NCBI GenBank assembly: GCA_000004985.1
Contig: GG738885.1
Source of the DNA: Naegleria gruberi
Taxonomy: Eukaryota
Length of the DNA: 64,000 bases
Strand: one strand, 5' to 3'
The position numbers and the translations under genes were made by a program. Positions 5,936 to 49,638 of the stretch are shown here, one piece after another. Numbering within the stretch: the stretch's first letter is position 1; every line of letters starts with the position of its first letter. Under the pieces are notes generated by a model. The model saw only the letters and a list, made by a program, of their open reading frames with translations. It was not told where the DNA came from and searched no databases.

Positions 5936-6721
5936 TTACAATTCTAGCTCATCAAAATCAGTCCATACTGTAATATTTAACCTCCGTAAGAATGAAGAAA
6001 CAAGTCTTACAAATGGTCTAATCACATCATGTAATTCATTACTATAGAGAACAATTGCCAATAATAAGAGAATCAATAAAAGAGCAATATTCAAACTAGG
6101 TATCATGTCAGCTACAACTCCTTTAGTTTCCTCTTCTTTCAATAATAAAGTTGCTCTTCTTAAGCCTCTCTTTCCAGGATCTTGGAGTGGTTCATAACAA
6201 GGAGGCATAGATCTTACAGACATGGTTGTTCTAGTTGTTCTGGTAGTTCTTGTTGTTCGTCCTGAAATAAAGCTGTCACTAGGTGATTGCAATAGATTTG
6301 TTCTATCGGATCTATTAGATGTGAAAGATGTATTAATTGTTGTGCTAGTTTTGTTTGTGGCAAATGATGTGTTAATAGAAGTACGGGTTGTGTTAAAACT
6401 ATTGTGAAGAGGTTGTTGTTGAATCTGGTCATCATCGGCATCCTCCGGATAGTCTTCATAATCCAAAATATCTTCATTTCCATCCCCAAATGGATCTTCT
6501 TCAGTTTCACCGAATGGATCATCAAGAATAACTTGTTCTTCTTCATCATATTCACCCTCCTCTAATTCTTCTTGATAATCTTGTGAGTTGGCATATTCTT
6601 GAGCTGTAATAAATTTAGTTTCTCCCTTTAGATTGTAGAATGGTGATGTTGGGGTTTTCAGTTCTGAATCATCACTTGTAAAACTAATATCTTTTTGTGG
6701 TGTCGAGTTTTGTTGAGACAT
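5936..6721 (-). CDS. Hypothetical acidic protein with a C-terminal TM (tail-anchored-like), 261 aa
   Basis: ATG at 6719-6721. Long D/E-rich region (EEGEYDEEEQVILDDPFGETEEDPFGDGNEDILDYEDYPEDADDD). (TTR)n repeat. Single C-terminal hydrophobic helix (LNIALLLILLLLAIVLY). Confidence 0.35.
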   Translation of the reverse strand: MSQQNSTPQKDISFTSDDSELKTPTSPFYNLKGETKFITAQEYANSQDYQEELEEGEYDEEEQVILDDPFGETEEDPFGDGNEDILDYEDYPEDADDDQIQQQPLHNSFNTTRTSINTSFATNKTSTTINTSFTSNRSDRTNLLQSPSDSFISGRTTRTTRTTRTTMSVRSMPPCYEPLQDPGKRGLRRATLLLKEEETKGVVADMIPSLNIALLLILLLLAIVLYSNELHDVIRPFVRLVSSFLRRLNITVWTDFDELEL

Positions 6722-6809: not shown

Positions 6810-7454
6810 ATGAAGAAGCAGATGGTATCTTCAGCCTCTTCATCCAATGTGATTAGTACTCGAAAAGAAACCTCCATTAAATTAAAAACAAATACAAAGC
6901 AATCAGAAATTCGACAATTAATCAAAGATGACAAAATTCGGAAAGATAACCAAAGTTTGTTGGTTCGGAATCATCAACAACAAGCACTAGTTGCTATTGA
7001 TGATCATCGATGTAATGGAGGTCCCCTCATTGTTTCTCATTCATCAAATGAACAATCTGAAATGGCATTGGAAAATAACAAATCAAATTTTCACATGAAT
7101 GCTCTTCAAGGAGTAATTCATAACATTCAATTCAATGGCTTAACTCCCACTTCGCAATCAGTAATGGATGGACAAATGGAAGCAGCCTTATTTTCCATTG
7201 AATCAGGTCTTTACGGTGTATGGAGGTCAAATAGAAAAGATGAAAAATTTGGAACTATTCAAGATTGTTCAAGGATTGGTCCGAATTCTACATGTTTTTG
7301 TGGTCATTCCCTCAAGGAACATTTCAAAAAGGGGCACAACTATAAGGTAGATCAATGTTTATCATGTAAGGAATGTAAACGATTCGAATTTATTCCTACA
7401 ACTCCTGAGGAAATTGGAGAAGTTTGGCTTGTGAGAAGAAGTAACTGTAAGTAA
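6810..7454 (+). CDS. Cys/His-rich protein; first of two adjacent ORFs carrying the same CxC..H..H / CxxCxxC motif
   Basis: ATG at 6810. The C-terminal motif is CFCGHSLKEHFKKGHNYKVDQCLSCKECKRFEFIPTTPEEIGEVW. It is repeated in the next ORF (7484-7789), which is in a different frame. No splice solution joins them (see findings). Confidence 0.4.
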   Translation: MKKQMVSSASSSNVISTRKETSIKLKTNTKQSEIRQLIKDDKIRKDNQSLLVRNHQQQALVAIDDHRCNGGPLIVSHSSNEQSEMALENNKSNFHMNALQGVIHNIQFNGLTPTSQSVMDGQMEAALFSIESGLYGVWRSNRKDEKFGTIQDCSRIGPNSTCFCGHSLKEHFKKGHNYKVDQCLSCKECKRFEFIPTTPEEIGEVWLVRRSNCK

Positions 7455-7483: not shown

Positions 7484-7789
7484 ATGAACCAAGTTGATGC
7501 AAGCAAATTCTCCGTAAAATGCAAATGCAAACATACATTTAAGGATCATCAACCAAACGGCTCAAAACGATGCAAGCATGCCTCATGTAAATGCCAAATG
7601 TTTAACAGTGATTTCCTTTGTGTTGTTTGTGATGGTCATTTCGAGGAGCATGAGACTGTCTTTGAGACATCCAAAGAGAGGAAAGAGATGGGACTTCCTG
7701 TTGGACAAGATTACATTCCCTTTGCAGAGGTTAAGGAACTCCAAAATGTTGTTTTTAATTCCGGAACGAATGTACCAACAAATCGGTAG
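7484..7789 (+). CDS. Second Cys/His-rich ORF with the same motif. Either a tandem paralog or the 3' part of the previous gene after a frameshift.
   Basis: KCKCKHTFKDHQPNGSKRCKHASCKCQMFNSDFLCVVCDGHFEEHE..GLPVGQDYIPFAE mirrors the motif of 6810-7454. Confidence 0.35.
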   Translation: MNQVDASKFSVKCKCKHTFKDHQPNGSKRCKHASCKCQMFNSDFLCVVCDGHFEEHETVFETSKERKEMGLPVGQDYIPFAEVKELQNVVFNSGTNVPTNR

Positions 7790-7912
7790 AAGTGCACCTT
7801 ATCTGGAGCAGCTCTCCTATTTACCGGAGCTTGTCTCCGTAAAACTCCTGCTGACAGCTATTTATACCAACTGGATCAACATGTTAATGATATCCAACAA
7901 CAAAAAAACAAA

Positions 7913-9793
7913 ATGATTAAGAATAGCATCTTTATTGCACTCTTTGTGTGTATATATTTAACATGTACAGTCTATTCACAAGGAGCTCCTTGTGTGTTCA
8001 ATACACCATTGCCAATTAATCCAGATTATTATTGGACAAGTCTTGCCTCCTTCCGAGCATGCTTGCCAAATATTCCTGCTGACAAGGATATGATTGCAAA
8101 CACCCTTGATATTGCTGTTGCTACTTCTAATGGTTATTCTTATGAATATATGGTTCAAAATAGCACATACTCTGGATCTGCATATTCTATTTCTGTAAAT
8201 TTGAAGAATAGAATTCAACAAATCAGAAACAAGAATTATGATTTCGACTATCAATTCCACAAAGAATTGATGGGTCTCTTCTTCAGTCTCTATGATGCTC
8301 ACACAATTTACATGCCTCCAAATCCATACAAGAATTCTTACTTGGTATTCCCATTCGATTTGACTAGCTCAATTACTAATGTTGGACAAGTTATTAGTGT
8401 AAAGGCTGACAATCGTCTCTATAGTGCCATTACTGGTTCTAATTCCGGTGCTGCTGGTAAAACTATTAGAACTATCAATGGAGTCAAGCCAAAGGACTTT
8501 TTAGATAGCATTGCTAATACTATTTTCATGTCAAAGGAAGCTGCTTCCAGATTCAATGAAGTTATCAAGATGCAAGAAATGTCTCTTGGTGCTTTGATTA
8601 TGCCAGAATTTGATTCATTGAACTATGTTTTCAGTGATGGTTCCTCTCTCAATCTCCCATTGGTTGTTTTGCTCTCTCAACAAATTAATGGTCCAAAAGA
8701 TTTCAAGAATTTAATGGCTGCTCAACCTTCCAAGTCAAGAATTGAAGTCAGAGTTAACAATAATCAAAAACGTGCACCAACTATGGCTGTTGATCCAAGA
8801 ATGGTCATTCCAGAATTGTCAATTCCAAAGATTGTTTACAAGAAAACTGGTTTTGAAAGCAAGCTTAGAGGAATGGCTGCTGGTAATCTCAAACTCCTTT
8901 ACTCTGCTTCTGATAAGTCTATCGCATACTTGTACCACACAACTCGTAAGATTTCAGTTTTCAAGATTGAATCATTTGCTCCAAATTATCCATACAGTCA
9001 ATATCCATGGGATGAATTCAAGAGTATTGTTGAAAGAGGAGTTGCTCATGCTCAATCTGTTGGTGTCAAGTCACTCGTTCTTGATTTACAAGGAAATGGT
9101 GGTGGATATGTTTGCTTATCGATTGCTTTGGCCAGACTTTTGATTGCCGAATATTCTGATCTGTCAAAACTCTATCAACCTTTTGAATTCAAGAAAAATC
9201 CACTTGTTGATTCTGCTCGTCCATTCTTCATTCAACCAAACTCAATGCTTAATGCTACAAATCTTCAACTATTGCCAAATGCTGATTTCTATGAGAGAGG
9301 TGTAACAAAGAAACTTGGTGGAGTTATTGCTAGTTACTCTCAACAATTCTATCTTGATTGTGCCAGTGAAGGTAACTTCTTCTTCAAGCCAGCCACTCAT
9401 TACTTTAACAAGTTTATTATCTTGACTGATGGTTTGTGCGGATCTAGTTGTTCTCAATTTGCTTCCAAATTGATTTATAATAAGAAGGCATTGGCTGCTA
9501 ATGTTGGTGGTTATGATTCTACTTTTGAAACAACTGCATTCAATGGTGGTGCTGTTCTTCACTATGATGACCTTGTCAAAAGAGGAGCTCCAATTCCAAG
9601 ATTAACCAAATCCAATGCTGTATTTACTTTCAATGAATTCCACATGTACTTGAATGCACAACAACCAATTCCAAGAGAATTCCAAATATTGAGAGGTGAT
9701 ATCAAGATTAACTCTTGGGACTTTGATGATTTGGAAGGATTGGTTGATACTGTTGCTCCTCAATTCGACAAGATGACTCCACTCAATCAATAA
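7913..9793 (+). CDS. Secreted peptidase S41 family (C-terminal processing / tail-specific protease-like) protein, 626 aa
   Basis: ATG at 7913 with a signal peptide. S41 signature SLVLDLQGNGGGYV (compare LxxDLRxNxGG). Catalytic-serine region ILTDGLCGSSCSQFASKL. Single exon. Confidence 0.6.
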   Translation: MIKNSIFIALFVCIYLTCTVYSQGAPCVFNTPLPINPDYYWTSLASFRACLPNIPADKDMIANTLDIAVATSNGYSYEYMVQNSTYSGSAYSISVNLKNRIQQIRNKNYDFDYQFHKELMGLFFSLYDAHTIYMPPNPYKNSYLVFPFDLTSSITNVGQVISVKADNRLYSAITGSNSGAAGKTIRTINGVKPKDFLDSIANTIFMSKEAASRFNEVIKMQEMSLGALIMPEFDSLNYVFSDGSSLNLPLVVLLSQQINGPKDFKNLMAAQPSKSRIEVRVNNNQKRAPTMAVDPRMVIPELSIPKIVYKKTGFESKLRGMAAGNLKLLYSASDKSIAYLYHTTRKISVFKIESFAPNYPYSQYPWDEFKSIVERGVAHAQSVGVKSLVLDLQGNGGGYVCLSIALARLLIAEYSDLSKLYQPFEFKKNPLVDSARPFFIQPNSMLNATNLQLLPNADFYERGVTKKLGGVIASYSQQFYLDCASEGNFFFKPATHYFNKFIILTDGLCGSSCSQFASKLIYNKKALAANVGGYDSTFETTAFNGGAVLHYDDLVKRGAPIPRLTKSNAVFTFNEFHMYLNAQQPIPREFQILRGDIKINSWDFDDLEGLVDTVAPQFDKMTPLNQ

Positions 9794-17554: not shown

Positions 17555-18048
17555 CGCCAACAATTGATCATTCAACTCTCAAACTTCTCAATTTAATGTA
17601 TTTGTTCATTGATGAAGAATAAAAATTTCAAATATTTTTAAAAAAACAAAAATCCCACAACAATCAGCAAATCACACCTACAAATTTTTGGAGAAGAGAA
17701 AAACCAAAACTCTGAAGACTAAGATAGGACGCCATTCTCGAAGGTCAGACTCTAACGACAAGCCTGTCCTATTAGAGTTCGATTCAAAAGAAGGGAGCAA
17801 TAGCATAGAGTGCTTCTTAAGTGGCAAGTGCAACACGGAATGTTGCATTAATGTCAATCCAGATTCACACACTTATTTTTCAATCAAAATGTTGATGAAT
17901 CATTTTGATTGTAGAGCTATTTTAAACCGACTACAATGATGATAAACACGTGTGCTAATTGGAAGGGAAGATAACTCACCCGTAACACTTTGTGATGACC
18001 ATTTTAACTTGAAAACCTTCAATCTTTATTTTTGAAAATTCAAAAAAA

Positions 18049-18489
18049 ATGTCTCAATCAATGAAAGGATTCAACCTGACCAAACTCTCGGAAGGAAATG
18101 CTCATTTTGGAGAGCAAGTTGGCAATCAGCTCTATGAAGATTATCTCCCATCGTTGATGGCTACCCAACTTAATTGTGCTAAATATTTTGATCTTAAAGT
18201 TGATGATGAAAAGACAAAGAATGATCCAGAAAGAACACACATTTCCGAAAGTGAATATATGAAATCAGTTACAGGATGTATTGCTGAAAGTTTATGTCCA
18301 AAGACATTCAGTGAACAAAATAAGAGTAACAAGGATTGTGTATCAAAGCTGATTCAAATGAATGCTGATTGGAAAGCAAACGTTCCTCAAGATAAAGAAG
18401 TACAATTCAAAAAGGATCTCAAAGATTGCATGACAGAGGTAAAGAAATGTGCAGCAGAATTTATTTTGCACGGAAGCTCTGGAAACTAA
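18049..18489 (+). CDS. Hypothetical protein, 146 aa
   Basis: ATG at 18049. Several Cys residues and no family match. Confidence 0.25.
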   Translation: MSQSMKGFNLTKLSEGNAHFGEQVGNQLYEDYLPSLMATQLNCAKYFDLKVDDEKTKNDPERTHISESEYMKSVTGCIAESLCPKTFSEQNKSNKDCVSKLIQMNADWKANVPQDKEVQFKKDLKDCMTEVKKCAAEFILHGSSGN

Positions 18490-18546
18490 GCATAATGTAC
18501 ATTATATTTGTAAATATAAAAATCATCCACGTGTATGATGTGGCTA

Positions 18547-19384
18547 TCATTTAACTTGATAACTAAGGAAACCTCTTCTTTCCAAAAGACAAAACCTCAA
18601 TGGCTTCTCACTCCAATCATCAGCATAATCAATATTAATTCTGGGACAGGCCGCTAATGTAAAGTTTCCAAATTTGAACGATTTTACATCAGTCCTAGTG
18701 TAGGGAATTAGTTCAGGCTCAAAATCTTCTAAAAATACTGTTTCCGAACTCTTTAGATCAACTCCATCAAATTCCTCCCTAGTTAAATTCAAAGCATGAG
18801 AAATTCTAGCTGGTCCAGAACAAACATTATGAATGATGATATTATTTGGATTGATTTGAGATTTGGGCGATAACAATTGATTCATTGTAATTCTATTTTG
18901 TTTCATTTCCTCAAATCCTTCAATTGGTTCAATTGCCCTAATCAATACTGCAGCTCCACTCTCATTACTAGTTATATTGAAACAATCATTGTGTCCCTTA
19001 AATGATTTATAGATATAGGAATGACCATATGGCAAGTACATGTTCCTATTCTTTTCTGTTTGTTTACCTTCATAGGTATGAGAAGCCTTGTCCAATACTC
19101 CTAGATAGGCCTCTTTGGTTCATGAACAATAATTCAAAACAAATAATTATAATTTGTTTTCATTCCAATATAAACTCACCAACCTCTACAATCATGCCAG
19201 ACAATCGTTTATCTCCATCAATTCTAACCAACAACTTTCCGATGAGTTGTTTTGCCAATTCCTCACATCCTCTATTGTAAAATTCAGCATCCACTCGTTT
19301 TGATCCATCACAACTACTATCCTGCATGATTTGTTCGATTAAATTATTACTACTATTATCAAATGATTCGTTTGTACTGGCCAT
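18547..19384 (-). CDS. DNA-3-methyladenine glycosylase (MPG/AAG family), two exons
   Basis: Exon 1 is approximately 19180..19384; its ATG is one codon inside the track's GTG at 19387. Exon 2 is approximately 18547..19112. The 67-nt intron, approximately 19113..19179, runs GTGAGT..AAAG. The spliced product ...LAKQLIGKLLVRIDGDKRLSGMIVEVEAYLG...ASHTYEGKQTEKNRNMYLPYGHSYIY... matches human MPG (GRIVETEAYLG...AHSRGGRQTPRNRGMF...). Confidence 0.75.
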
Positions 19385-19490
19385 CACACTGAGGTAGTAG
19401 TACCTTCTTGTTGTCTTTCTATTTTTTAATATATTTAATAATAGATTGATGAATCATCTCTTACGTATGAATTATTGGAATTTACAATGA

Positions 19491-20975
19491 ATGTTCTTCT
19501 CCTTGACAAAGAAAATTCCAATCTTGAAAAAAATGTCTTCACACCACACAATTCATCATCTTCACTCGGATGTAATTCATGGGATTTTGAGCTTTTTGGA
19601 TGGAAGATCTATCATTCTCACTCGCTCAAGTTGTAAAATATTTAACGAATGCTATATGAATCATAGAGAAAGAATATGGAAAGAGTTGTGGAGAAGGGAA
19701 TTTCCATCACTTTCCGAAAAGATTAATTATTTTATTGAAAATAGAGGAGACGGTGAATTTACAAATATAATAGAGAAGAAAGTTGCTAATTGGTCGGATT
19801 ACTTTGATCTTTTTTTTAATGCCAAATTACATCATGAGAGAAAGGGACAATATAAATTGAATATTCTCAAGTCAGACAAATTGGAAGATAAACAAGAGAG
19901 TAATCCGAATGACATATTGACACAGACTCTCCCTGTTTCATTCTGTTGTTTCATGAAAAAGTATAGAAATTTAGAAGGATATCTACCAAATGAAAATGTG
20001 CTTTCAAGACTTACCAACGAAGAAAGAGGTGTATTGAATATCATGACCGATAAGAATAGGTATTTATTCTTTTCGAGATTTAATGATCCAGTATTTTCTC
20101 TAGTGGATGTTAAAAATAATAGAATTGCTAAGAAATTCGTAGGTCACAAAGGAACTGTTCTGGACATTAAATGTCTCTTTACTGACCCATTCAATTTAAA
20201 GTCGACCAATGTAGGAGCAGGCACTTTCTACCTCAATACTACAAGTACATCCTTCAATAATAGAGTTGTTAGTGCTTCAAGTGATAAAACTATCAAAATT
20301 TGGAACTTTACAACTGGAAGTTGCATTGAAAGCTTGACAGAACACAAAGGAAGTGTTGTCTCCATTGAAATGATCAATGAGAATGTTCTCTGTAGCGCCT
20401 CTCATGATTTATCCATTAAGCTGTGGGACTTGAATCATGGAGCATCTCTTTCAACATTGGACAATGTACATGAAAAGTTGATTTACAAAATTCAATATAA
20501 TTCATGGAATAATTTCCTTGCATCATGTGGAAAGGATGGTACCACTAATCTATTTGACATGAGAACTATTAGTAATGCTTCTAAACCTTTCAAAACCTTG
20601 GATCATATCAAGGATGGAGACACTGAAAAATTGTCAGTCTATTCAATTGCTATGAATTCACACACTCTGTGTTGCGGAGGAAAGGATGGCTTATTTACCA
20701 TGTATGATTTGAGAAATCTCGAAAAGCCACTCTTAAAGAAGAATTTCACATCTTCCATTGACAGAATTTATTCGGATGAGTTTAAGGCAGTACTTTTTGA
20801 AGGATTCACTTGTAAAGTTCTCGATTTAAATACAATGCAAGAAGAAACCATCACCGAGTTGGAAAATAGACAAGCTACCTATTGTGTTGCCCTAGGAAAT
20901 GAACCATTCATTGATTATAACACAATGGTCACTCAGATTGATAATCAAAATCTATGCCTCGTCGACATGTTGTAA
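19491..20975 (+). CDS. F-box / WD40-repeat protein, 494 aa
   Basis: F-box-like N-terminus (HLHSDVIHGILSFLDGRSIILTRSSCKIFNECY). WD repeats (SASSDKTIKIWNF; SASHDLSIKLWDL; SCGKDGTTNLFDM). Confidence 0.65.
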   Translation: MFFSLTKKIPILKKMSSHHTIHHLHSDVIHGILSFLDGRSIILTRSSCKIFNECYMNHRERIWKELWRREFPSLSEKINYFIENRGDGEFTNIIEKKVANWSDYFDLFFNAKLHHERKGQYKLNILKSDKLEDKQESNPNDILTQTLPVSFCCFMKKYRNLEGYLPNENVLSRLTNEERGVLNIMTDKNRYLFFSRFNDPVFSLVDVKNNRIAKKFVGHKGTVLDIKCLFTDPFNLKSTNVGAGTFYLNTTSTSFNNRVVSASSDKTIKIWNFTTGSCIESLTEHKGSVVSIEMINENVLCSASHDLSIKLWDLNHGASLSTLDNVHEKLIYKIQYNSWNNFLASCGKDGTTNLFDMRTISNASKPFKTLDHIKDGDTEKLSVYSIAMNSHTLCCGGKDGLFTMYDLRNLEKPLLKKNFTSSIDRIYSDEFKAVLFEGFTCKVLDLNTMQEETITELENRQATYCVALGNEPFIDYNTMVTQIDNQNLCLVDML

Positions 20976-21011
20976 TTTTATAAAGCAAGCAAATATTAGA
21001 ACCTTAAAAAA

Positions 21012-22859
21012 ATGATTAAAAAGCTCGACCAAGCAACAGAGTTTCATTTGAGAAGTGGTGTTCAGTTGCCGGATATTCAGACAATTTTAGGGAAATTGAT
21101 CGATAATGGTGAGTTTGGTTATTTAATATATTCCTTCTGAATTATGTTTGTAAAGCAATTGAGGCTAAAAGTACTTTTATTCGTATTAATATCAAATCGA
21201 AGCCTTCTTTTTCCATTGAGGTTAAAGATGATGGAGTAGGAATTGATTTCTCTGGATTGAAAACAATCGGAGAGTGTAGAAATGGTAAGTAATTAAGAGT
21301 ATTACAATATATAAAACCAATGAAATATAGTTTCTTCTAAAACTGATTTGAAAGGAGAGTCTCTTCATTCAATAATTACAGCCTGCTCTACTGTCAAGAT
21401 TACCTCCAAAGGGAATAATTATCCTCTCTGTTTCTCTTCAATATTTGTAAATGGTCAAAGGAAAAGCCTTGAACAAGCTCCCATCACAACTTTCCAAAGA
21501 GGAGGAACCTCTGTAATGGTTGAAGGAATTTTCAGTAATTATCCAGTGAGGAAGAAACAATTAGAAGAGCATCCTGATCAATACTTGAGATCAATTGTAG
21601 ACTTTATAGAGGTAGAAAGCTTCAAATTGGTTGATATTCAAATTGCATTGGTTTGTGATGGAATGTCAATCTTTGATTTGTCCAACTCGGAAAAGGAACA
21701 AGCCTTACATCAAAGAATAAGGAAACGATATGAAGAGTTGACGAGAAGGAGAAACTTATTTCCAATAGAAGACATCAAGTTTGGAGAATTGCAAGTCAGT
21801 GGCATTGTTGATAAGAATGACATAACTTCAAAGATCAAGATTGTAATTGTAAACAATAGGGTTTATCCAATAGAAACATTAATTAAGAAAGGAGAAGAGT
21901 TTGGAAGTTTTGTACTCTGTGCTTCTATATTGAAAGCTCCACCACATAACTCTGAAATGATTAACTCTGAGCTTCGCAATGCTCTGTTCTATAGTAAGCT
22001 ACATAATGAATCAAGCACTATTCAAATATACAATGAAGAATCAGAACAGAGAAAAGAGTTTGCACCACTATCTTCTTCCCTTTATGATAAGATGTACAAT
22101 AGAAAACCAAGTGAAAACAAAATTAAGGGTGACCGTTTAAATATTAACCAACTAATTAACAAATCGAAAGAGATTAATGGCATCAAAACCATTCCAAAAC
22201 CTCAACCCAAGTTTATGAGCTCTCCAAAAAAGAAGAAGCTGTTGAATATTTCTCTTGACAAGAACCAAATGAAACAATTGAAATTTATCAATCAATGGGA
22301 GAAGAAGTTTATTCTCACATCCTTAAAGACAGAGAACAGTCTCCTACTTATTGCTATTGATCAACATGCAGCAGATGAGAGAGTTCGCATGGAGATGATT
22401 CAACAAAATATATTAGATTATGCGCAGCAGTCTCCTGGCCCATGGGTACAACCACTCTCGAAGCAAACACTAAACTCCACCAAGGTTGAGGGATCGAAAA
22501 CCATATCCTTATTGAAACAGAACAAAGACAAATTATCCAAATGGTATTGGAATTTTATTATCATTCATGAAGAGTCAACAAACGCATTTTTAAAACTCAA
22601 TACTATACCTTGTTTATTCGTCGAGAAAGACTCTATTGAGCTTGGTTTTGAATCTATGATGTCATTTTTATCTGAACTGGAATTTGATTCAACCTGTTGG
22701 TATCCAAAACGAGTTTTAGAACTCATTCAATCCAAAGCATGCCGTGGAGCCATTATGTTTGGAGATGTGCTATCCACTGAGAAATGTAATCAACTGTTAC
22801 AACAATTATCAAATTGTCAACTGCCTTTCCAGTGTGCTCATGGAAGACCTAGTAAGTAG
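21012..22859 (+). CDS. MutL homolog, MLH3-like mismatch-repair protein, three exons
   Basis: Exons are approximately 21012..21108, 21156..21284 and 21331..22859. The splice restores the GHKL ATPase motif LIDN|AIEAKST. C-terminal motifs DQHAADERVRME and FQCAHGRPS are present. Confidence 0.75.
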
Positions 22860-23006
22860 TTCCAACTTTGCAATTTTTTAAACAACCATTTCAAAATAGC
22901 AACTGGAATCCTGACTTCGATCAATTAGGTAGTAATATTGAGATTAACAATAATGAAGAAATAAAATGCCATTTTGAACAGTTCAATTGACTAATAAATT
23001 ATTTAT

Positions 23007-24470
23007 TTAATATTCTTCAGTCTTAATATCATTCAAACCAAGATCTTCATTTTGTTCGAAAGTTCTCTCATATTGTTCAACAGTAAGGAATGGATCAACA
23101 TCTGGAGCAAACAAGTTTTGAATATAACTGTTTGACACTGGATCATCAATAATCAAAGTCCAAGGCATACGACCACCAGTTTGCATTTCATCAATACCAG
23201 TCAAGAATTTTTGGAATGATTCCTTTTCCTCAGCTGAGTCACCAACTCTAAATTGGTTGACTTCGGTCAGCTTGTCCTTAATATTCATTAATAAACCTTC
23301 AACAGTTGTAAATTTACCACCAAGAGAACCAGTAGCAACCTGGAGGTCGAGTTCTGGAATTTCCAATGAAGCAGTTTCACTCTTCAAAACATCTCTACTC
23401 AAATCTTCTGGGTTAGTGACACGAAGAGTTAATTTAGTGGCGTATGGAGATATTTGACCACCAGCTCTAACTTCAGTAGTCTTGTAACCACACTTGTCAC
23501 AAGTGAATGACATTAAAATAATATCTTTAAAGAATGGAACAACCAACGGCATCATCTTCAAGTTACCTGAAACACCACAACCGTAACATGGTTCATTAAA
23601 TGTGAAAACTTCCTCTGGTGCAGACATCTTTTCTTGCAATAATTCAATTTCTCTCTCGTTAGAAATAATTGATGTTGGAATATTAGCAGCAAGTCTACTC
23701 TTTGGTTTTTCTTGACCTCCTTCAGTGTAATTTTGAGCACCTAGTGAGAGACCAAGTCTTTCAGTTTGTTCATCAGATCTTTGATAATATCTAGTGAAAA
23801 CTTGAGGATCATTTGGTACTGTTAATTTTTCAACATTTGAATTTCCAGAATAATCATCAATAACAATAGTGAATGGGAATCCTTCTCCACTAATTAATTT
23901 TTGTGCCTTTTCAATAAAGTTATCAATAGCAGAAGCAAGAGAAGGGTCCAAAACTCTTCTAGCTGCTTGTCCATCCAATAAATTATCAATTGCTCTATTA
24001 ATAACACCCTCAACAGTTGTAAGTGTACCCTTTTGAGTATTTTCTGGAATTTCAAAATCAATTTCTGGAATACTCAAAGTAGCAAAGTCAGACTTGACAA
24101 TTTGTCTATCCAAATCTTCCTTCTTTTCAACCTTTAAAGTGTAACAAACACCAAAATCACCATAAGAACCACCAAATTGAATTTCTTGATTTCTCATTCC
24201 ACAATGTGGGCAGCTGAAACTAGTAATAATAACTTCTCTAAAGTGAGGAATTTTAGTGAACAACATTCTAGTAACACCATTCTTCTCACAATTTACACAA
24301 AAGCTTTCCAATTCCAAAGGAGCAGAATCATTCAAGCCAATAGTATGGAAAATAGGTTCCGATGAAGTAGAAAATTGTTGTTGCTTTGGTTCTTCAGTGG
24401 TGGCGGTTGTACTATTAGTTTCTTCAGTACTAGTATTTTCGTGGTTATCAACGTCGTTGAGGGTAATCAT
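23007..24470 (-). CDS. zpr1: ZPR1-type zinc-finger protein, 487 aa, single exon
   Basis: Two ZPR1 zinc-finger modules (CVNCEKNG...CPHCGMRN and CYGCGVSG...CDKCGYKT), each followed by a ZPR1 beta-domain. Full-length ORF. Confidence 0.85.
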   Translation of the reverse strand: MITLNDVDNHENTSTEETNSTTATTEEPKQQQFSTSSEPIFHTIGLNDSAPLELESFCVNCEKNGVTRMLFTKIPHFREVIITSFSCPHCGMRNQEIQFGGSYGDFGVCYTLKVEKKEDLDRQIVKSDFATLSIPEIDFEIPENTQKGTLTTVEGVINRAIDNLLDGQAARRVLDPSLASAIDNFIEKAQKLISGEGFPFTIVIDDYSGNSNVEKLTVPNDPQVFTRYYQRSDEQTERLGLSLGAQNYTEGGQEKPKSRLAANIPTSIISNEREIELLQEKMSAPEEVFTFNEPCYGCGVSGNLKMMPLVVPFFKDIILMSFTCDKCGYKTTEVRAGGQISPYATKLTLRVTNPEDLSRDVLKSETASLEIPELDLQVATGSLGGKFTTVEGLLMNIKDKLTEVNQFRVGDSAEEKESFQKFLTGIDEMQTGGRMPWTLIIDDPVSNSYIQNLFAPDVDPFLTVEQYERTFEQNEDLGLNDIKTEEY

Positions 24471-24896
24471 TTTTTTTCAAACAATTTTTGAATTGATGAT
24501 TTTTATGCTTGAAGATTAAGATAAATTATGCTGAAGGAATGCTCAAGGAAAATTCCGAAATTGCACTTTAATATTATTTACTATCATGATGATTAATTCT
24601 TTAATTTATTGTACAAATATTAATACTTGAAGCTAATTAAAATTCAACATTTCGGAATCAATATTATTTTATAAACCATATGATGATTTGCCTCTCAACC
24701 TATGAAATACATAATAGGATATTATAATAAGGATCCAAACAATCAGTAATCAGTGTCTCTAAATCAATATTAATCTAGGAGTATTAACATGATGAACTAT
24801 CAAAATGCTATAATTCTTCCGAAATAGCATGATGATGCTCCAGAAACACCTAAGAACTCAAAACTTCTCCGTCAGCCAAATCTCTCAAAAGAAAAA

Positions 24897-26084
24897 ATGT
24901 TCACCATTGCTGCTTCACTGGTGTTGGCCTATGTGGGTGTCTGTTTCATTTGGGATCAAATTCCGTATGTTTCTTCAAATTTCTAATTGTTGACTGTTGA
25001 TTTTTGTGTGATTGTTGCTAATTTGTTGATGATGAACTGTTTAATGAACATTCCTTTGATATGAAATTTGTTACCGATCACAATGATGATGACTATGATT
25101 TGATAATGATGATTCTACTATTATATTAACTATTACATAGTCCTAGAATGAGTGCTAGAAGAAAGATTTCAATGAGTGGATGGGGAGCCCCTTCAGAGCC
25201 AGCCACTTATGGATGTGTCACTATTGATCTAGAGAAAATTGAAGATTTATTGACCAAGGTTTCCGAAAAAATTGGTCAAAAGATTACAATTACTCATTTC
25301 ATGAGTAGAGCTGCTGGTTTGGCAATTGAGGCATGTCCTGAAATTAACTGTAGAATGGTTTTGGGTAAATTGCTTCCAAACAAGACTATTGATGTCAGTT
25401 TGCTTGTTGCTTGTGAAGATCCAAAAACTAAGAAGAATGATTTATCCAATGTCACAATTAGATCAATTAACAAAAAGACTTTGAAAGACATTTCCGATGA
25501 AGTTGTTAAAGGAGCTGAAAAATTGAGAAGTGGAAAAAACGAAAATCACAAAAAGACAAATCAACCAATGTCTTTCTTGCCAACCCTTATTGCTGGTCCA
25601 ATTATTAGCTTTATGGCTTGGTTGGCTTGTGCTTTGCAAATGAATATTCCTGCATTGGGACTTCAAGCCCATCCATTTGGTACTTGTATCATTACATCGT
25701 AAGTATTGATTGTGTTGACATGGTTTGGATGAACTAATATTTCATAGAGTTGCTGGTTTTGGAATTGAGGAAGGATTTGTTCCATTAGCTCCATTCACAA
25801 GATGTCCATTCTTCATTTGTATTGGGTAAGTTTTTTCTCCACCTCAAATGAATTTTAATTTCATTTCGGATAGTTTGGCCAAGAGTCAACCAGCTGTCAA
25901 TGAACAAACTGGACAAATTGAAGCTAGAAGACAAGTTAAAGTTACTGCCACCACTGACCATCGTTTCGTAGATGGTAAGGAAGTTGGAAAATTAGTTAAG
26001 AAATTTGTGGACGTCTGTACTAATGTTGAAAAGTACTTTACTGTTGATGAGGAATCTAAAAACTTTGTTGAAAAGAAGCACTAA
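24897..26084 (+). CDS. Membrane-anchored protein with a 2-oxoacid dehydrogenase E2 acyltransferase catalytic (CAT-like) domain only, four exons
   Basis: Exons are approximately 24897..24964 (MFTIAASLVLAYVGVCFIWDQI, TM), 25141..25698, 25748..25825 and 25874..26084. Introns are 176, 49 and 48 nt (GTATGT/GTAAGT..AG). The catalytic-domain motifs ITITHFMSRAAGLAIEACPEIN and TTDHRFVDGKEVGKLVKKF (DHRxxDG) are present. There are no lipoyl or E3-binding domains. Confidence 0.55.
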
Positions 26085-26150
26085 TTTAGTTATAATTTAT
26101 TATAAACATAAAAATATTAATCTAGTTAGATGATTTAATCTGTTGTAATC

Positions 26151-27374
26151 CTAGTTGAATTTGAAAAATTGTTGAAAGTGATCCTTAAGTAACTCTTCAC
26201 ACTTTTCTCTGCTTAATTCCTCCTCTATGGTCGCACCTATTTCGGATAGAAATGATTTTACAATCAATAAATTGTCATTCATGCTCTCTATTGATTGGAA
26301 ATCAACAATTGGTCTTGCATCCAATTCCAATTCGTCATCAATTAATTGGAAGGTAAATGTTGTAGACCACACAAATTTGCACACCTCCTCAATACCAGAT
26401 GATACTCTAGGTGTGCTGGTACTGCTGATTTCTTGACCAATTTTACTGCCACTACTGCATAACTTTTCTGTTCTGTAGTGAACTACCTCTATTGAGGAAT
26501 TATTAAAGTACAATTCTACAACCCACATTCTTCCATCAAATAATCGAACCTTTCCTCCAAACTCTGATTTGAATTTAGATTTGACATCCATCACTGATTG
26601 TGAGATTGATTCTTGTTGCATGCAACTCAATATCTTTAAAATGTTTTTAAAAGTATTCAATCTGTGGGGTTTTAATTCCAATTCCTTCCAAACATTCTCC
26701 ATTGTTGAAATCATATCATTCTTAATAGTTTCAACAGATAGTTCCTCACCCTCATCCTGACTATTAGTATTGAATAAATCTGCTCGGCAACACTCTACTA
26801 AACCTAGATTTTGAAATAATTGACCAAAAAGTCTCAGAATTGCCTCTTCAATTTCATAATTTGATGGAGAAGATGATTCAACAAGTTCAATTCCATCAAC
26901 TTTCATTTTTGGAATTAATCTCACAATATCTGATGCTATTAATTTAAAAGTATCACCAGTCATGGATACATCACTCGCATTATCAATCAGATCAAATCTT
27001 GATGATATTATTGCATTCTCAATTTTGCTATTTTTCGAAATGGTAACATTATCCTCTGGTTGATCCTCTACTTTCTGATATTGAAGTGAATTTGATAGTG
27101 TTCTAACTGATTTTCGTATAGTTTCCGATTGATTAGCAATCATTTTGGCATTCGAATCAGAGACATCATCCACCACTACAAGACTTTGTTTTAAATCAAT
27201 TGTAATAATTGATGAATCGTTAGAATTAGAATGAGAGTGAGTTCCTGTTGATGATGATGAAGATTTATCAACGTGTGATTGTTGTTGTTGTTCCTCACCT
27301 TGATCTAATTCATCCTCCTCCTCTTGATCTTCCTTTCGGTTAGAAGAACAAACAACCATAGCTTTGAGAAACAT
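26151..27374 (-). CDS. Hypothetical acidic protein, 407 aa, single exon
   Basis: ATG at 27374. Acidic/poly-Q N-terminus and no confident domain assignment. Confidence 0.35.
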   Translation of the reverse strand: MFLKAMVVCSSNRKEDQEEEDELDQGEEQQQQSHVDKSSSSSTGTHSHSNSNDSSIITIDLKQSLVVVDDVSDSNAKMIANQSETIRKSVRTLSNSLQYQKVEDQPEDNVTISKNSKIENAIISSRFDLIDNASDVSMTGDTFKLIASDIVRLIPKMKVDGIELVESSSPSNYEIEEAILRLFGQLFQNLGLVECCRADLFNTNSQDEGEELSVETIKNDMISTMENVWKELELKPHRLNTFKNILKILSCMQQESISQSVMDVKSKFKSEFGGKVRLFDGRMWVVELYFNNSSIEVVHYRTEKLCSSGSKIGQEISSTSTPRVSSGIEEVCKFVWSTTFTFQLIDDELELDARPIVDFQSIESMNDNLLIVKSFLSEIGATIEEELSREKCEELLKDHFQQFFKFN

Positions 27375-28024
27375 TTTTTTTATCGGAAAGAGAAGTTTGA
27401 TGACTTTTGGATTAATATGAATGTGTTATTGTCATCTGTTTTGCTGACTTAGTATTCTTGGTTATGATCATGCCAATTGTTTAGAATCATTATTGGTTGT
27501 GTTTTGTTACTGGTGTAATATCTTTACCCTCTTGCTTTTGGTACCAATCAATGATGAACGGTATTATGATTTATAAAGAGTGGAATTATGTGGTTTAACA
27601 CTTTCTTGTGTAGAAGATTATTGGTAGCAATACCATTGAGCAATTATTATATCATCCATTATTGCAAAGTCTTCTTTGTCTAATAATTTTTTTAATTATT
27701 GTTAAATGGTGATGATGAAATTTCTTGTTATTGTTTCTAAAGCAAATGATGAAGTTTTTGTTGTTGCTAACTCAGCTTCAAGGAATGACATCATATACAA
27801 ATCGGTATGAGATCGGCGAGTAGAATGTTATTATTCTTTTGTTGTGTTGTGTGTTGAATGCAATTTTGAAAGCAGGCAAGAAGGTCAAAAAATATTCATT
27901 GTAAAATTCACTAATGTGGTTGCCAACCAGAAATTTGCATAAAATTTGTTGAAAAAAAAATCATTAATTCGTAAGTATCACTCACGTTAATGGAGATTGC
28001 TAAACCACCTCATCTTACTAGAAA

Positions 28025-28453
28025 ATGGGTAAAGTCAGAACCAAGACTGTCAAGAAGGCATCAAAGATCATCGTCGAAAAGTATTACAATTCTCTTACTA
28101 CCGACTTCGATACCAACAAGAAGGTCTGTCAAGAAATCGCCACCATTCCAACTAAGAGAATGAGAAACAAGATTGCCGGTTTCACTACTCACTTGATGGC
28201 CAGAATCAAGAAGGGTACCGTCAGAGGTATCTCCTTGAAGTTGCAAGAAGAAGAAAGAGAAAGAAGAATGGACTACGTTCCAGAAGTTTCTTATGTCGAT
28301 GAAATTATCAACAGAGGTATTGAAGTTTCTGATGAAGTCTCTGACATGTTGAAGACTATTGGTTTCGGTGATTTGAAGAGCGTCACTAAGGTCTCTCACT
28401 CAACAGGCCACCACCAACACCACAATAAGAGAAGAGGTAACAAGTCTTATTAA
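28025..28453 (+). CDS. rps17: 40S ribosomal protein S17 (eS17)
   Basis: [21 protein letters not shown]...[34 protein letters not shown] is near-identical to eukaryotic eS17. Intronless, 142 aa. Confidence 0.95.
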
Positions 28454-28486
28454 ATAAATCCAATATAAAACTATTTAAAATTACCT

Positions 28487-30104
28487 TTAATTCTTTTTTA
28501 AAATTATTATTTGTCTTCCTATTCTAGAATCATGAGTTAAGTGCATATGGAAGAATCGTTGATGTAGAGTAAAGTTGTGTTGTTGGATGAGAAATTCGGC
28601 AACAGATTGAACACTGTGATGATCATACATTACTACATAATGTGCTTCTTTGTGTGTCTTGGATACTTTCTGTACAAACTCTAGAGGATTATTGTAGAAT
28701 CTATCAGCTTGTGAATCATCTCCATCAAAAGGAGAGCAGTCCAAGTGGAATAGCTTAATATGTCTCGTGGATTGTCTTCCTTCAAATAAGAATGCATGAC
28801 CAGGCAAATGGTGACAAGGCATTAATAAATGAACTACCATATCCTTTTCTTGCCCAGTAACAGGCAATTGTTGTTTGAAGAATTGTTGACTCTCACTTCT
28901 CAAATGATTGACCACCTTAATTGGAGCACTTTGATGAATTCTTCCAAGATAAAATACAGCACCCAGTTGAACAATGGTCATAATTACAAGTAAGAGTCTG
29001 TATCCTCTATCAGTGATATGAACCTTATTGTGAATAAAATCTCCAATTGAAATAAAACAGAGTGGTAAAATTGGATAGATAAATCTAAACTCCTTATGAG
29101 CTTGTAATGAATAGACCAATACTGGTAAGAGAATGACACAATTAAGTTTCCAATATTTTCTACTATATTCCCTATTCACAAAATTAATCCACACATAGAG
29201 AGGGAAATGTGTTAATAACATGACAGGAAATCCCTGAGTAAAATACCAATGCCATGGTTGAGTTCCATATACTAATAAAATCAAGAACAGTAATTATTTA
29301 AAAGAAATGATGAGAAAACATACAATGGGCAAGATTTTCAACAATGTTAAATTTCAAAAAGTTCAAAATTACAATGGTGAATTGTCCATACATATTTGAG
29401 TCAATCTGGATTGAAATTGCAAGCCAAATTATACTATTCAATTAAATATTCCGTTTCCAATAATTATTTTAAGCTCTTAATTATATAATTTCACTTACAC
29501 ATATCCAATGAATGTTAATAAATATTTGAAAATATTCTTCTCCTTAAATAATTGAAACAAAAACAATGGAATATAAATAATGGTACTTGTTGGTCTCACA
29601 ACACATCCAAATCCTGCAAAAAACATCCAGTAATGCCTAAATTTCTTTGAATGATCATGATTATGATGATGGGAGTGACATTTATCATCGTGACATTCAT
29701 CTTGTTGAATTAGATCAACAGGGAATAAATAAATAGCAATTAACACAATATTCATTTCCATAGTATTTGAAAAAGTCCTCACTCCACAATATAAATTAAA
29801 CCAATTAGTCAATGAAATCAATAACTACAAATTCCACAATTGCAATTAAATTAACACATACAGTCAAATAGGCAGTCATTTTCGATTTTAAATACTTGGC
29901 AACAATTAAAAAGAGAAAATAATCTGACAATGCTGTGCACACTGACTGAACAGCAATTGGCATCCAATACGATAAGAAACCCATCAATGATTCATCATTT
30001 CCATATAATTTCTCCACAAAATCCATCACATAATATCCACTAGATAGAATCATTGGATGAAGATATCCTCGGAGAGAGTGTTTAGCATCCCATTCCCATG
30101 GTAT
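28487..30104 (-). CDS. GPI mannosyltransferase 3 (PIG-B / Gpi10 family, GT22); at least 4 exons, 5' exon not found
   Basis: Exons are approximately 29862..30104 (IPWEWDAKHSLRGYLHP, matching the conserved TWEW..LRSY..P), 29499..29824, 29324..29433 and 28487..29271. Introns are 37, 65 and 52 nt. Motifs QPWHWYFTQGFPV and LLMPCHHLPGHAF match PIG-B (HPWHWYFSQGFPV; MPCHSTPYYSH). The first in-frame ATG is at 30053, but the conserved coding sequence runs up to the TAA at 30105-30107. Confidence 0.7.
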
Positions 30105-31382
30105 TTATGTGGATGATCGGGAAAGTTCTCTAGCTGCCAAATATTTTGGATGGCTTCTATTGATATTTGTCACAAAGAAAGTTCCCTTAACATCCTTCAT
30201 CTTGACAAGATTTTCCTTTTGCATTTGTTTGAGGAATTTACTCCACTTCTTGTATGTTGATTTCTTAATATCCAAAACTATGTCCTCGCTAAATTCAAAC
30301 ATTTTAGTATAGAATCCACTTCCTTCCATTGGTAATTGATCATCCTCAACACTACTCTTTAAAGCAGTGAGGAAGTATGATTCCAAGAGAGAGTCCATCT
30401 CTTCTGGCTTGATATCAGAAGAACCTTCACCACTTGGCTCTGCTTCATCATCACTACCTTCTACAGTTGACTTTCCTTCTGTAGCCAATGGCGTCACTTC
30501 AACCTTTTCAGTGGTTGGCTGTTCACCATCTTCATCTTCTTCCACAGATAAGATTTCAATAATTTGTGATGTAAATCCAACTGGTTGAGAGTATGTCGAA
30601 GGGGCATGATTCACGCCAAATTGCCACATAAAGTCATTGAAAATATGAACTGTTTCAAAACATTTCCCCTTATCTGCTTTTGAAAATTCATCAAAATCCA
30701 TAATCATGTCACCGATGGCAAATGGGATGGGATTTCCTCTCACTTGAATGCTTCTAATGTCACCCTTCTTGAATGGACCAATTCCTCCATGACTTCCCTT
30801 ATTATTCAATCTTTCTCCTCCAATTAAATTCATATTTTGATTCTTTTGATTTTTACTCACACCAGGTTTCATTAAATCAGCACCTTGCAAAAGATAATGA
30901 GAAACTGGTTGAGCAATATAAATAGTATCCACTAAATTAGGTGCAATTTGAAGAGCAAATATTGTTGGATAGTAAATTTCCTCTTTTTCAATCGAAAAGA
31001 ACATTGGAACATTATCTACAGTAATTACATTAAAAGTTTGAACATCTGATGCTGCTCTCAATTGTTGTTTTTGCAATTGTTGTTGTTTCTTTTTCTTATT
31101 AGGAACATTCTTTCCGACCTGAATTTCCTCTAAAATTGCCTCCGAAGCAGCAGTTTGATGATAAATAACAAACTTTGATAATTCCACATTTTGATTCTTT
31201 GTTGGTACGAGTAATCTCCATGGATTTATTTCATCACTACTAGCACTACCACCCTCTTCATCATCAGCATTAGAAGGTGCTGGAATATTTCGATATTGTT
31301 CTTGTAATTGTTTTAATAATTTTCTACGATCCGAAGATTTTAAATTGTGTGATTGAGTTTGCTTGAGTGTCTTTTTAAACAT
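30105..31382 (-). CDS. eIF2D / ligatin homolog, N-terminal ~420 aa only (no SWIB/SUI1 region in the ORF)
   Basis: MFKKTLKQTQSHNLKSSDRRKLLKQL... matches the eIF2D N-terminus (MFAKAFRVKSNTAIKGSDRRKLRADV). The central region FLTALKSSVEDDQLP...DIKKSTYKKWSKFLKQMQKENLVKMK matches human FLHALKCRVKKADLP...DIKKSSYKKLSKFLQQMQQEQIIQVK. The ORF ends about 230 residues short of the human protein. Confidence 0.7.
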   Translation of the reverse strand: MFKKTLKQTQSHNLKSSDRRKLLKQLQEQYRNIPAPSNADDEEGGSASSDEINPWRLLVPTKNQNVELSKFVIYHQTAASEAILEEIQVGKNVPNKKKKQQQLQKQQLRAASDVQTFNVITVDNVPMFFSIEKEEIYYPTIFALQIAPNLVDTIYIAQPVSHYLLQGADLMKPGVSKNQKNQNMNLIGGERLNNKGSHGGIGPFKKGDIRSIQVRGNPIPFAIGDMIMDFDEFSKADKGKCFETVHIFNDFMWQFGVNHAPSTYSQPVGFTSQIIEILSVEEDEDGEQPTTEKVEVTPLATEGKSTVEGSDDEAEPSGEGSSDIKPEEMDSLLESYFLTALKSSVEDDQLPMEGSGFYTKMFEFSEDIVLDIKKSTYKKWSKFLKQMQKENLVKMKDVKGTFFVTNINRSHPKYLAARELSRSST

Positions 31383-32060
31383 TTTTTTACTTTCTTTTAT
31401 TAGTATATTAATATTAGAATAAGTTCAATTTTACATTTGTACAACTACTTCAAAACAATTTTGTAAGTTGGTGTTAAACAATTCACCTTAACATCAACAA
31501 TATCTATTTGAATCATCATTTTGTATTCATCTTCCAAAAGGTTTGAAAGCCTTCAAAAAAAATATTAAAAAATATTATTGTATAAAAAATTACCCATAAC
31601 ATTTAGTAGAATAAAATGTTCGGTCTGGGGGCAATTAATAAGCGAGGAAGTGCTTCTTGTTTTTAAACAGTTGTCTTACCATTCTTATAAGCAGACAATG
31701 TCTTTCGCCTTTTACTAAAGACATCCGTGTGAGAATGGACAAATAGATAACGCTAATTTTTTCTGCCTCTTCTCAAGAGGTCTGTTCTTAATAGAAATTC
31801 AACCTTTTTTCTTTCGGCCTGATTGGCTTGATTTCATATATATTTGAGCTAATGTTCAATTGCTATTTCTCCACAAATTCAGGAATTACAATTTCTTGCG
31901 TAATAAGAAATATTTTTAATGATTGACAGTTGCCAAAAAGCGCATATTTTAGGAGTTTAAATTGCATCACTAACGAAATCTTTTTGAATGGGCAGCTAGT
32001 AACAGGTCAATCAATGGAGTGTCAGTGACGCCTCATGTTTATACTAACTGCATCAAAAAA

Positions 32061-48670: not shown

Positions 48671-49540
48671 CTAAAGTAAAAGAGAACAGACAAGAACAGT
48701 GAGAGTTACACCTAAAAGATCCATTACAACTGAAGACATTGGACCAGAGGATATGCCAGCATCGAATTTCAAAACAAAATGAATGAATAGTGGAATGAGT
48801 GCACACACAAATACACTCACAATGACAATCATTATAACACTCAAGGTAAGAGCTATTAATTCTTTCAATAGAGTTGGATTATAAAAGATGGCAATGAATG
48901 GTGACATTCCCATTGCTTCTTGTGGAGTGAGACTGAAAACTCTGTAAATATAAACTCTCAGAAAAGCAATTAATCCAATAGCCAAGCTCAATAGAATACC
49001 AATTCTAAATTCCCTCCACACAACTTGAAAAATATTTGATTTTTTAAATTCACCTGTTGTAATTCTTCTCACAATTTCAATAACTGTTTGTGATCCTGAA
49101 TTGCCTCCTGTTCCTATTAACATGGTTAAAAAAAGGGAAATAATAATATGTTTTTCTATCAGAGATTCAAACTTGGCCAAAATAAAACTAGAAAATGATT
49201 GCAAAATTAATAATAATATCAGCCATATGCCTCTTTTGTATACAATTTTAAATATCGATTGGTCAAAATATTTAACATCCACTTCGGAATTAGTTGAACT
49301 ATTTACATCTGTCTCGGAATTATTTTCATCATTATTTCCAATCAAAGGCTGATTTGATGAATAAATTTCATCATCCTCAAATACTTGAGATTCTAAATCA
49401 ACTTCGCTTTGAACTAACTGACTTTTTTCCTCTCCTATTTGTTCTTCTATTGTAGTGGTAGAGGTAGTGGCTGGAGTAGTACTGTTTGTGTTTTCCGATA
49501 TTGCTGATGATGGAAGATCTTTCAATTCCTTTTCACTCAT
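48671..49540 (-). CDS. MgtE/SLC41-like divalent-cation transporter domain protein (single MgtE TM module) with an acidic N-terminal extension
   Basis: MgtE signature LFLTMLIGTGGNSGSQTVIEIVRRITTGE (GNxGxQ), followed by about 5 TM helices. 289 aa. Confidence 0.55.
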   Translation of the reverse strand: MSEKELKDLPSSAISENTNSTTPATTSTTTIEEQIGEEKSQLVQSEVDLESQVFEDDEIYSSNQPLIGNNDENNSETDVNSSTNSEVDVKYFDQSIFKIVYKRGIWLILLLILQSFSSFILAKFESLIEKHIIISLFLTMLIGTGGNSGSQTVIEIVRRITTGEFKKSNIFQVVWREFRIGILLSLAIGLIAFLRVYIYRVFSLTPQEAMGMSPFIAIFYNPTLLKELIALTLSVIMIVIVSVFVCALIPLFIHFVLKFDAGISSGPMSSVVMDLLGVTLTVLVCSLLL

Positions 49541-49638
49541 TTTTTATTTGATTATTAATATTTTATGATATTTTTAGATGTTTAGAATTATTTTAATATG
49601 AAAATTGGGTCAATTAAGACCAAATGTTTTGTAAGGGT

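Follow-up and report, generated by a model that had tools for sequence, protein, structure and literature searches.

A stand-alone, membrane-anchored E2-type acyltransferase in Naegleria gruberi and a possible family of lipid-directed acyltransferases in protists and bacteria

The catalytic cores of E2 subunits are known as components of giant, soluble dehydrogenase assemblies, in which they rely on swinging lipoyl arms of their own. In a 64,000-nucleotide stretch of contig GG738885.1 of Naegleria gruberi (GenBank assembly GCA_000004985.1; hereafter the window), a gene at positions 24897-26084 of the + strand presents this machine without lipoyl arms, apparently membrane-bound and with a conserved hydrophobic insert, and related protists add lipid-transfer and acyl-coenzyme A (acyl-CoA)-binding modules to it by fusion. 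We propose, with a probability of roughly 0.55, that the product is an acyl-CoA-dependent acyltransferase that faces the cytosol, is probably trimeric and acts on a membrane lipid or another hydrophobic acceptor. The original prediction, made from the sequence alone, had suggested repurposing for membrane-associated acyl transfer; indirect support for this comes from a family marked by its insert, from bacterial members outside E1/E3 operons and from the anchored and fused eukaryotic members. The features of the gene are as follows:

24897..24964 (+): exon 1, with the ATG at 24897; codons 1-22 plus 2 nucleotides, encoding the N-terminal hydrophobic anchor MFTIAASLVLAYVGVCFIWDQ
24965..25140 (+): intron 1, 176 nucleotides, GTATGT..ATAG, phase 2, dividing the anchor exon from the catalytic domain
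25141..25698 (+): exon 2, codons 23-209, with the RRK..W motif, the first half of the PF00198 match, the insert and Thr208/Ser209
25550..25660 (+): insert, residues 160-196, KKTNQPMSFLPTLIAGPIISFMAWLACALQMNIPALG, about 36 residues, with helices 157-168 and 171-187
25699..25747 (+): intron 2, 49 nucleotides, GTAAGT..ATAG
25748..25825 (+): exon 3, codons 209-235
25826..25873 (+): intron 3, 48 nucleotides, GTAAGT..ATAG
25874..26084 (+): exon 4, codons 235-304 plus TAA (26082-26084), with the catalytic motif and the C-terminal helices
25956..25976 (+): DHRFVDG, residues 263-269, with catalytic His264 and Asp268

The four-exon structure that had been predicted stands: the spliced model (24897-26084, + strand) joins 915 nucleotides in frame into 304 codons plus TAA, so that the length first given as about 305 residues was close without being exact. 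The introns have a GC content of 27-31% against 37% in the exons and approximately 33% in the window overall, and retention of intron 2 would lead to an immediate TAA, that of intron 3 to GGG TAA. Junctions 2 and 3 give ungapped alignments to bacterial homologs, which have no introns. The best matches of the protein, N. fowleri FDP41_002317 (297 residues, 74% identity) and Willaertia magna ABK040_004571 (297 residues, 65%), follow the model colinearly from Met1 to the end of the domain, exon 1 included, where the conserved pattern AY..C..WDQ.PP is found at the protein level; the C-terminal tail is not conserved in either. In a blastn comparison with the syntenic N. fowleri locus, similarity is confined to 24891-24970, 25137-25695, 25772-25825 and 25889-25983, i.e. 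the predicted exons, with no conservation of the introns and flanks of the gene. The sequence of intron 1 is likewise unconserved, yet the N. fowleri gene, too, is interrupted at this point of the protein (residues 23/24). These comparisons strongly support the predicted splice junctions, and the locus is a real, conserved, spliced Naegleria gene.

Two other readings of the gene were considered and rejected. A start at M26 (ATG at 25148), which would yield an anchorless protein of the bacterial kind, is matched in the alignment by a Met that lies four to five residues from the N-terminus of the bacterial homologs, beside their own start Met; it is ruled out by the conservation of exon 1 in N. 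fowleri and Willaertia at both the protein and the DNA level. Bacterial contamination or a recent horizontal transfer is ruled out by the introns, by synteny with N. fowleri and by placement of the protein among TM (transmembrane)-bearing sequences in a crude neighbor-joining tree without support values. More generally, the explanation that the locus is a mispredicted gene or a contaminant, or else that it encodes a non-catalytic, structural protein, is very improbable: its first two forms have to contend with three GT-AG introns, flanking eukaryotic housekeeping genes in an order shared with N. fowleri and conservation restricted to exons.

Apart from these questions, the two Naegleria species differ by intron turnover, the N. 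fowleri exon structure being deduced from tblastn and blastn high-scoring segment pairs. N. fowleri has no intron 3, the segment pairs being contiguous there (window 25826-25873 against 7055-7071 of the N. fowleri locus), and it has an extra intron near residues 45/46 with none in the window (25141-25211 against 6213-6382 of that locus).

The protein opens with a uniformly hydrophobic helix (MFTIAASLVLAYVGVCFIW; Kyte-Doolittle mean 2.13, hydrophobic moment 0.08), modeled by AlphaFold2 at residues 2-21, which bears out the hydrophobic anchor originally described. Residues 1-24 contain no Lys or Arg, and inspection of this sequence finds no Arg/Lys-rich amphipathic presequence, in agreement with the earlier statement that an obvious mitochondrial-targeting sequence is lacking. 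The catalytic domain begins 6 residues past the TM helix. PF00198 (2-oxoacid_dh) is the sole Pfam domain (E=3e-19, 69.9 bits against a cutoff of 23), its match being broken into two stretches by the insert. The protein has no Pfam match to a Biotin_lipoyl (PF00364) domain, nor have its orthologs and bacterial homologs, and no match to the peripheral-subunit (E1/E3) binding domain PF02817 at E<=1. An upstream exon encoding a lipoyl domain is excluded as well, the 426 bp up to the neighboring ZPR1 gene offering a longest open + strand frame of 31 codons. Thus, the description of the protein as a stand-alone E2 catalytic domain, free of lipoyl and E1/E3-binding domains, is upheld.

Profile searches kept the domain in the E2 family. 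Searches against PDB sequences recovered canonical E2 cores only, both with the single protein (best E=2e-6) and with a 121-sequence family profile (best E=8.5e-20). NCBIfam gave only partial matches to E2 equivalogs, far under their cutoffs, and none of its curated models covers the subfamily; the orthologs carry the automatic annotation '2-oxoacid dehydrogenase acyltransferase catalytic domain-containing protein'. The AlphaFold2 model, a single chain built on the family alignment (pLDDT 91.5, pTM 0.87), shows the helix 2-21, an E2 core and the extra helices 157-168 and 171-187. This is the fold of a 2-oxoacid dehydrogenase E2 core. In the alignment to human E2p, the DHRFVDG motif, also noted in the original prediction, is matched by DHRVVDG, and Thr208/Ser209 by the serine site TISN, so that, with a complete catalytic site, the E2-type (chloramphenicol acetyltransferase (CAT)-like) acyltransferase domain is predicted to be catalytically competent.

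The active-site residues are conserved throughout a set of 278 family sequences: His264 in 262 of 266, Thr/Ser208 in 274 of 277 and Asp268 in 260 of 265 (the denominators being those for each position), alongside W37 (257), T74 (251) and H75 (233). The N-terminal RRK-x5-W motif, the T-x-T-H motif and the LP-containing insert of the family are all present in the window protein. This conservation across the 278 sequences marks the catalytic site and the insert as family hallmarks apparently under selection. It also bears on the third form of the very improbable explanation raised above, a pseudoenzyme akin to E3BP/protein X: E3BP does provide a precedent for loss of catalysis from the E2-core fold, but more than 98% of members keep the catalytic His, Asp and Thr, as does the window protein.

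Comparison with canonical E2 cores (human PDC-E2 6ct0/3b8k, E. coli AceF 4n72/7b9k, E. coli SucB 1c4t and the Listeria core 3mae) defines what has been kept and what has changed. Shared with the E2p, E2o and E2b cores are an N-terminal R-K-x-I-A-like motif, the His/Asp of DHRxxDG and the Ser/Thr site (GTxxI-T-S in the window protein against GGTFTISN), and presumably also the CoA-thioester chemistry and an active site at the trimer interface. On the other hand, identity is only 16-22%, the lipoyl domain, the peripheral-subunit-binding domain and the linkers are missing, and the TM helix occupies the position of a linker. The family further has a 'TITH' motif in place of the canonical 'SVND', and an insert of about 36 residues forming two helices between the helix ending in 'GK' and the catalytic strand; its bacterial members have no E1/E3 gene context, and some eukaryotic ones carry ACBP, PH and START domains by fusion. 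A core of 24 or 60 subunits would be geometrically hard to reconcile with N-terminal membrane anchors.

Neither human E2p nor any PDB E2 recovered by the sequence searches contains an equivalent of the insert; the matches always fall into two blocks and leave query residues ~160-196 unmatched. The insert is modeled with pLDDT values of 86-94, and its Pro170 (of the LP motif) is kept in 274 of the 278 family members. Helix 171-187 (mean hydrophobicity 0.71, hydrophobic moment 0.16) is as hydrophobic as the TM helix (0.61), yet it is strongly conserved in sequence. This combination of TM-like hydrophobicity with sequence conservation suggests that the helix is a functional lipid-binding or membrane-dipping element, not a simple anchor.

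The family is large: a profile search retrieved at least 940 proteins at E<=1e-10, and an exhaustive phmmer search 1212 representatives (of 50%-identity clusters) at E<=1e-3. The window protein is 36-74% identical over the whole domain to its stand-alone E2-like relatives (those of N. fowleri, Willaertia, Pythium insidiosum (P43SY_000385) and bacterial metagenome-assembled genomes), which share the insert and the conserved motifs. The heterolobosean orthologs have the identical TM-plus-domain architecture, the N. fowleri one being syntenic too, whereas bacterial relatives are anchorless and start at the equivalent of M26, and some eukaryotic relatives differ by having two TM helices or large N-terminal ACBP/PH/START extensions. 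Most members are bacterial, of about 265-300 residues. A scan of GTDB genomes found 196 loci, mainly in metagenome-assembled genomes of Myxococcota and Bdellovibrionota/Oligoflexia; the Myxococcota members include Chondromyces apiculatus DSM 436, Polyangium, Sandaracinaceae and Bradymonadales. In a crude neighbor-joining tree without support values, the Naegleria and Willaertia proteins fall among TM-bearing (eukaryotic) sequences, and these group with Myxococcota-type bacterial proteins, apart from a larger, more divergent bacterial clade. The architecture occurs widely, among protists as well as predatory or social bacteria, and is not peculiar to the genome of N. gruberi.

For the bacterial members we clustered all open reading frames (ORFs) within 4 kb at 81 loci, and across these no conserved gene neighbor was found, E1, E3 and lipoyl-protein genes included. 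The commonest neighbor cluster (14 of the 81 loci) is likely a low-complexity artifact, and is followed by a SerB-like HAD protein (9 loci) and an HDAC-like protein (6 loci). This result bears on the possibility that the enzyme carries out the canonical E2 reaction in trans (acyl-dihydrolipoamide + CoA <-> acyl-CoA + dihydrolipoamide) on the lipoyl group of another protein, be it a canonical E2, the H-protein or an E3BP-like subunit, and could be tethered, for example, to a mitochondrial membrane. Such an activity would agree with the complete catalytic apparatus, with the nearest relatives in sequence and structure, all of them genuine E2 cores and not CAT or WS/DGAT enzymes, and with the N-terminus, a moderately hydrophobic helix followed by basic residues, which also fits a mitochondrial signal-anchor. 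We nevertheless regard it as unlikely, as the protein lacks a peripheral-subunit-binding domain for recruitment of E1/E3, the bacterial loci offer no conserved E1, E3 or lipoyl-protein partner, the absence of basic residues from the first 24 positions speaks against a matrix presequence, and neither the family-wide insert nor fusions to ACBP, PH and START would have a role in a lipoamide reaction.

These fusions are found among eukaryotic members. About 48 representatives display one to three hydrophobic 19-mers ending 3-14 residues ahead of the domain, and all TM-bearing representatives with source names are eukaryotic: Pharyngomonas (Heterolobosea), Hartaetosiga (a choanoflagellate), Chromosphaera (an ichthyosporean), Lapot (Rhizaria), the oomycete Pythium insidiosum and MMETSP transcripts. 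Nine long representatives (579-1180 residues) bear the TM-E2 module at the C-terminus, and in seven of the nine it is preceded by PH plus START, with an additional N-terminal ACBP domain in one of the seven (P0145). By Pfam, P0146 has START only, P0138 neither PH nor START, and P0157 two START matches. A tenth fusion, with a PH-START-E2 architecture over 1285 residues, comes from Pythium insidiosum (ATCC90586_001406), and was the only further one found in a word-indexed search with the Chromosphaera fusion protein (Nk52_evm32s2039). START domains bind lipids, and ACBP binds medium- and long-chain acyl-CoA; thus, the fusions point to lipid chemistry. The best matches of the P0157 START domain are STARD6, STARD13, STARD4 and STARD5 (E=4e-7 to 4e-3), a weak hint at sterol-type ligands.

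The same architectures weigh on another unlikely reading, in which the acceptor would not be a lipid and the enzyme would acylate, in the manner of CAT, a small hydrophobic metabolite or xenobiotic, or else a membrane protein. A stand-alone detoxifying or modifying enzyme of this kind would fit the absence of conserved bacterial operons, but the ACBP and START fusions point to lipids, and a substrate in the membrane is suggested both by the anchor and by the conserved helix, which is hydrophobic throughout.

A separate observation concerns the Pythium locus (JAKCXL010000032.1, 4128-15150), in which the PH-START-E2 gene is divergent from an NPC1-like gene encoding Patched, sterol-sensing and NPC1_MLD domains, and is followed by two tandem paralogs of 352 residues with the TM-E2 architecture. 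The position of the START fusion beside a putative sterol transporter is a lead towards a sterol acceptor, adjacency in eukaryotes being weak evidence.

As to topology, no basic residue precedes the Naegleria anchor and four lie within the 12 residues after it; in the TM-bearing homologs, the mean number of Lys/Arg is 0.46 before and 2.0 in the 12 residues after the last TM segment. The basic-rich flank of a TM segment is cytosolic according to the positive-inside rule, and hence the catalytic domain most likely faces the cytosol, tethered to the membrane. In most fusions, START and the E2 domain are separated by two hydrophobic segments, which as a hairpin would leave the PH/START/ACBP and catalytic domains on one side.

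Under the proposed acyl-CoA-dependent mechanism, a single N-terminal TM helix would tether the E2-type domain to the cytosolic face of the membrane, where it would probably form a trimer with an active site at each subunit interface, by analogy to E2 and CAT. With His264 as the general base, acyl-CoA would donate its acyl group to a hydrophobic acceptor residing in the membrane, at a hydroxyl, amine or thiol. This acceptor would substitute for the lipoyl-lysine arm, and the hydrophobic insert may act as a lipid entry or membrane-dipping element. In canonical E2 cores, as in the structure of A. vinelandii E2p, the outer face bears the N-terminus and the lipoamide entrance, and access for CoA is through the inner face. 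If this arrangement holds, a trimer tethered by its N-termini would admit the acceptor from the membrane side and CoA from the cytosolic side. In the ACBP-PH-START fusions, a single polypeptide might supply its active site with acyl-CoA as well as lipid, perhaps at membrane contact sites.

Reactions of the proposed kind, between soluble acyl-CoA donors and hydrophobic acceptors, are those of CAT, WS/DGAT and PapA5. Their structural similarity to the window protein is much weaker than that of the E2 cores, and WS/DGAT and PapA5 are two-lobed pseudo-dimers with HHxxxDG, not single-domain trimers. For the fused homologs, analogies are offered by CERT/STARD11, of the PH-START lipid-transfer type, and by ACOT11/12, which are START-containing acyl-CoA thioesterases; in the fused homologs, PH plus START are joined to an acyl-CoA-dependent enzyme domain. 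The analogies apply to the fusions only, as the Naegleria protein has neither PH nor START and its enzymatic domain is an E2-type transferase, unlike the hotdog thioesterase.

Sterol or ceramide are candidate acceptors, though only as leads suggested by the START fusions. More tentatively still than the activity itself, the family may constitute an unrecognized class of lipid acyltransferases with its origin in the E2 core, membrane-tethered, cytosol-facing and probably trimeric, with a sterol, ceramide or diacylglycerol-type acceptor, and distributed over protists and Myxococcota/Bdellovibrionota. Several points weigh against a lipid-directed activity. The Naegleria protein itself has no START, PH or ACBP domain, and the functional argument follows Rosetta-stone logic, from fusion proteins that are only 30-37% identical. 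The bacterial gene neighborhoods (81 loci) give no lipid-pathway signal. The N-terminal helix could be an anchor in the outer or inner mitochondrial membrane rather than in the endoplasmic reticulum, and there is the low probability, discussed above, that the acceptor is the canonical dihydrolipoamide, supplied in trans. We found no biochemical, expression or localization data for any family member in the literature and no publication on the stand-alone/TM subfamily or on its START fusions; the domain family as such is well established, and no characterized member of this subfamily was found.

The surroundings of the gene, from 18000 to 32000 in the window, consist of ordinary eukaryotic housekeeping genes, with no genes of lipid or 2-oxoacid metabolism among these neighbors:

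19491-20975 (+): WD40 protein
21348-22859 (+): MutL_C-like ORF, slightly under the Pfam cutoff
23007-24470 (-): ZPR1, with the ATG at 24470
24471..24896 (no strand): intergenic region of 426 bp, 27% GC, between the divergent ZPR1 and the E2-like gene, with no coding exon
28025-28453 (+): RPS17e
28487-29284 (-): ALG9-like GT22 exon
30105-31382 (-): eIF2D-like

In N. fowleri, the corresponding order is ZPR1 (-), the E2-like gene (+), a 407-residue ORF (-), RPS17e (+), a GT22 glycosyltransferase (-) and eIF2D (-). The 426-bp intergenic region presumably holds a bidirectional promoter. The 407-residue ORF, a single exon at 26151-27374 (-) in the window, has a Ser/Gln/Glu-rich N-terminus and no Pfam match; its position and its length of 407 residues are kept in N. 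fowleri, and it looks lineage-specific. Between it and the E2-like gene, N. fowleri has a DnaJ/DnaJ_C gene (330 residues, - strand, 7499-8491 of that locus), the counterpart of which is absent from this place in the window, where the convergent stop codons lie 66 bp apart (26085-26150).

The heptamer ATGATGA occurs in eight copies, all on the + strand, within 527 bp (24586-25112) covering the 5' intergenic region and intron 1. In the whole window it is found 64 times against 32.5 +/- 5.8 expected; other clusters, e.g. that at 49326-49835 (-), lie inside ORFs and are probably codon repeats. For the non-coding cluster, either a regulatory motif or mere low complexity is conceivable. Directly upstream of the ATG and overlapping two of its copies, a sub-threshold Rfam match to the C/D-box snoRNA Afu_294 (24785-24863, +; 22 bits against a gathering threshold of 43, E=0.47) is probably due to chance.

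The architecture and the fusions, as indirect evidence, provide a concrete and testable hypothesis of a new class of lipid acyltransferases. If true, it would add an enzyme class to eukaryotic and bacterial lipid metabolism, beside MBOAT, DGAT2, LPLAT and WS/DGAT, could account for orphan acylation steps in protists, among them the pathogen N. fowleri and the oomycetes, and in myxobacteria, and would present a clean case of a complex-bound enzyme repurposed as a stand-alone membrane enzyme. Were the acceptor instead lipoamide in trans, the family would represent a new organization of 2-oxoacid dehydrogenase chemistry.

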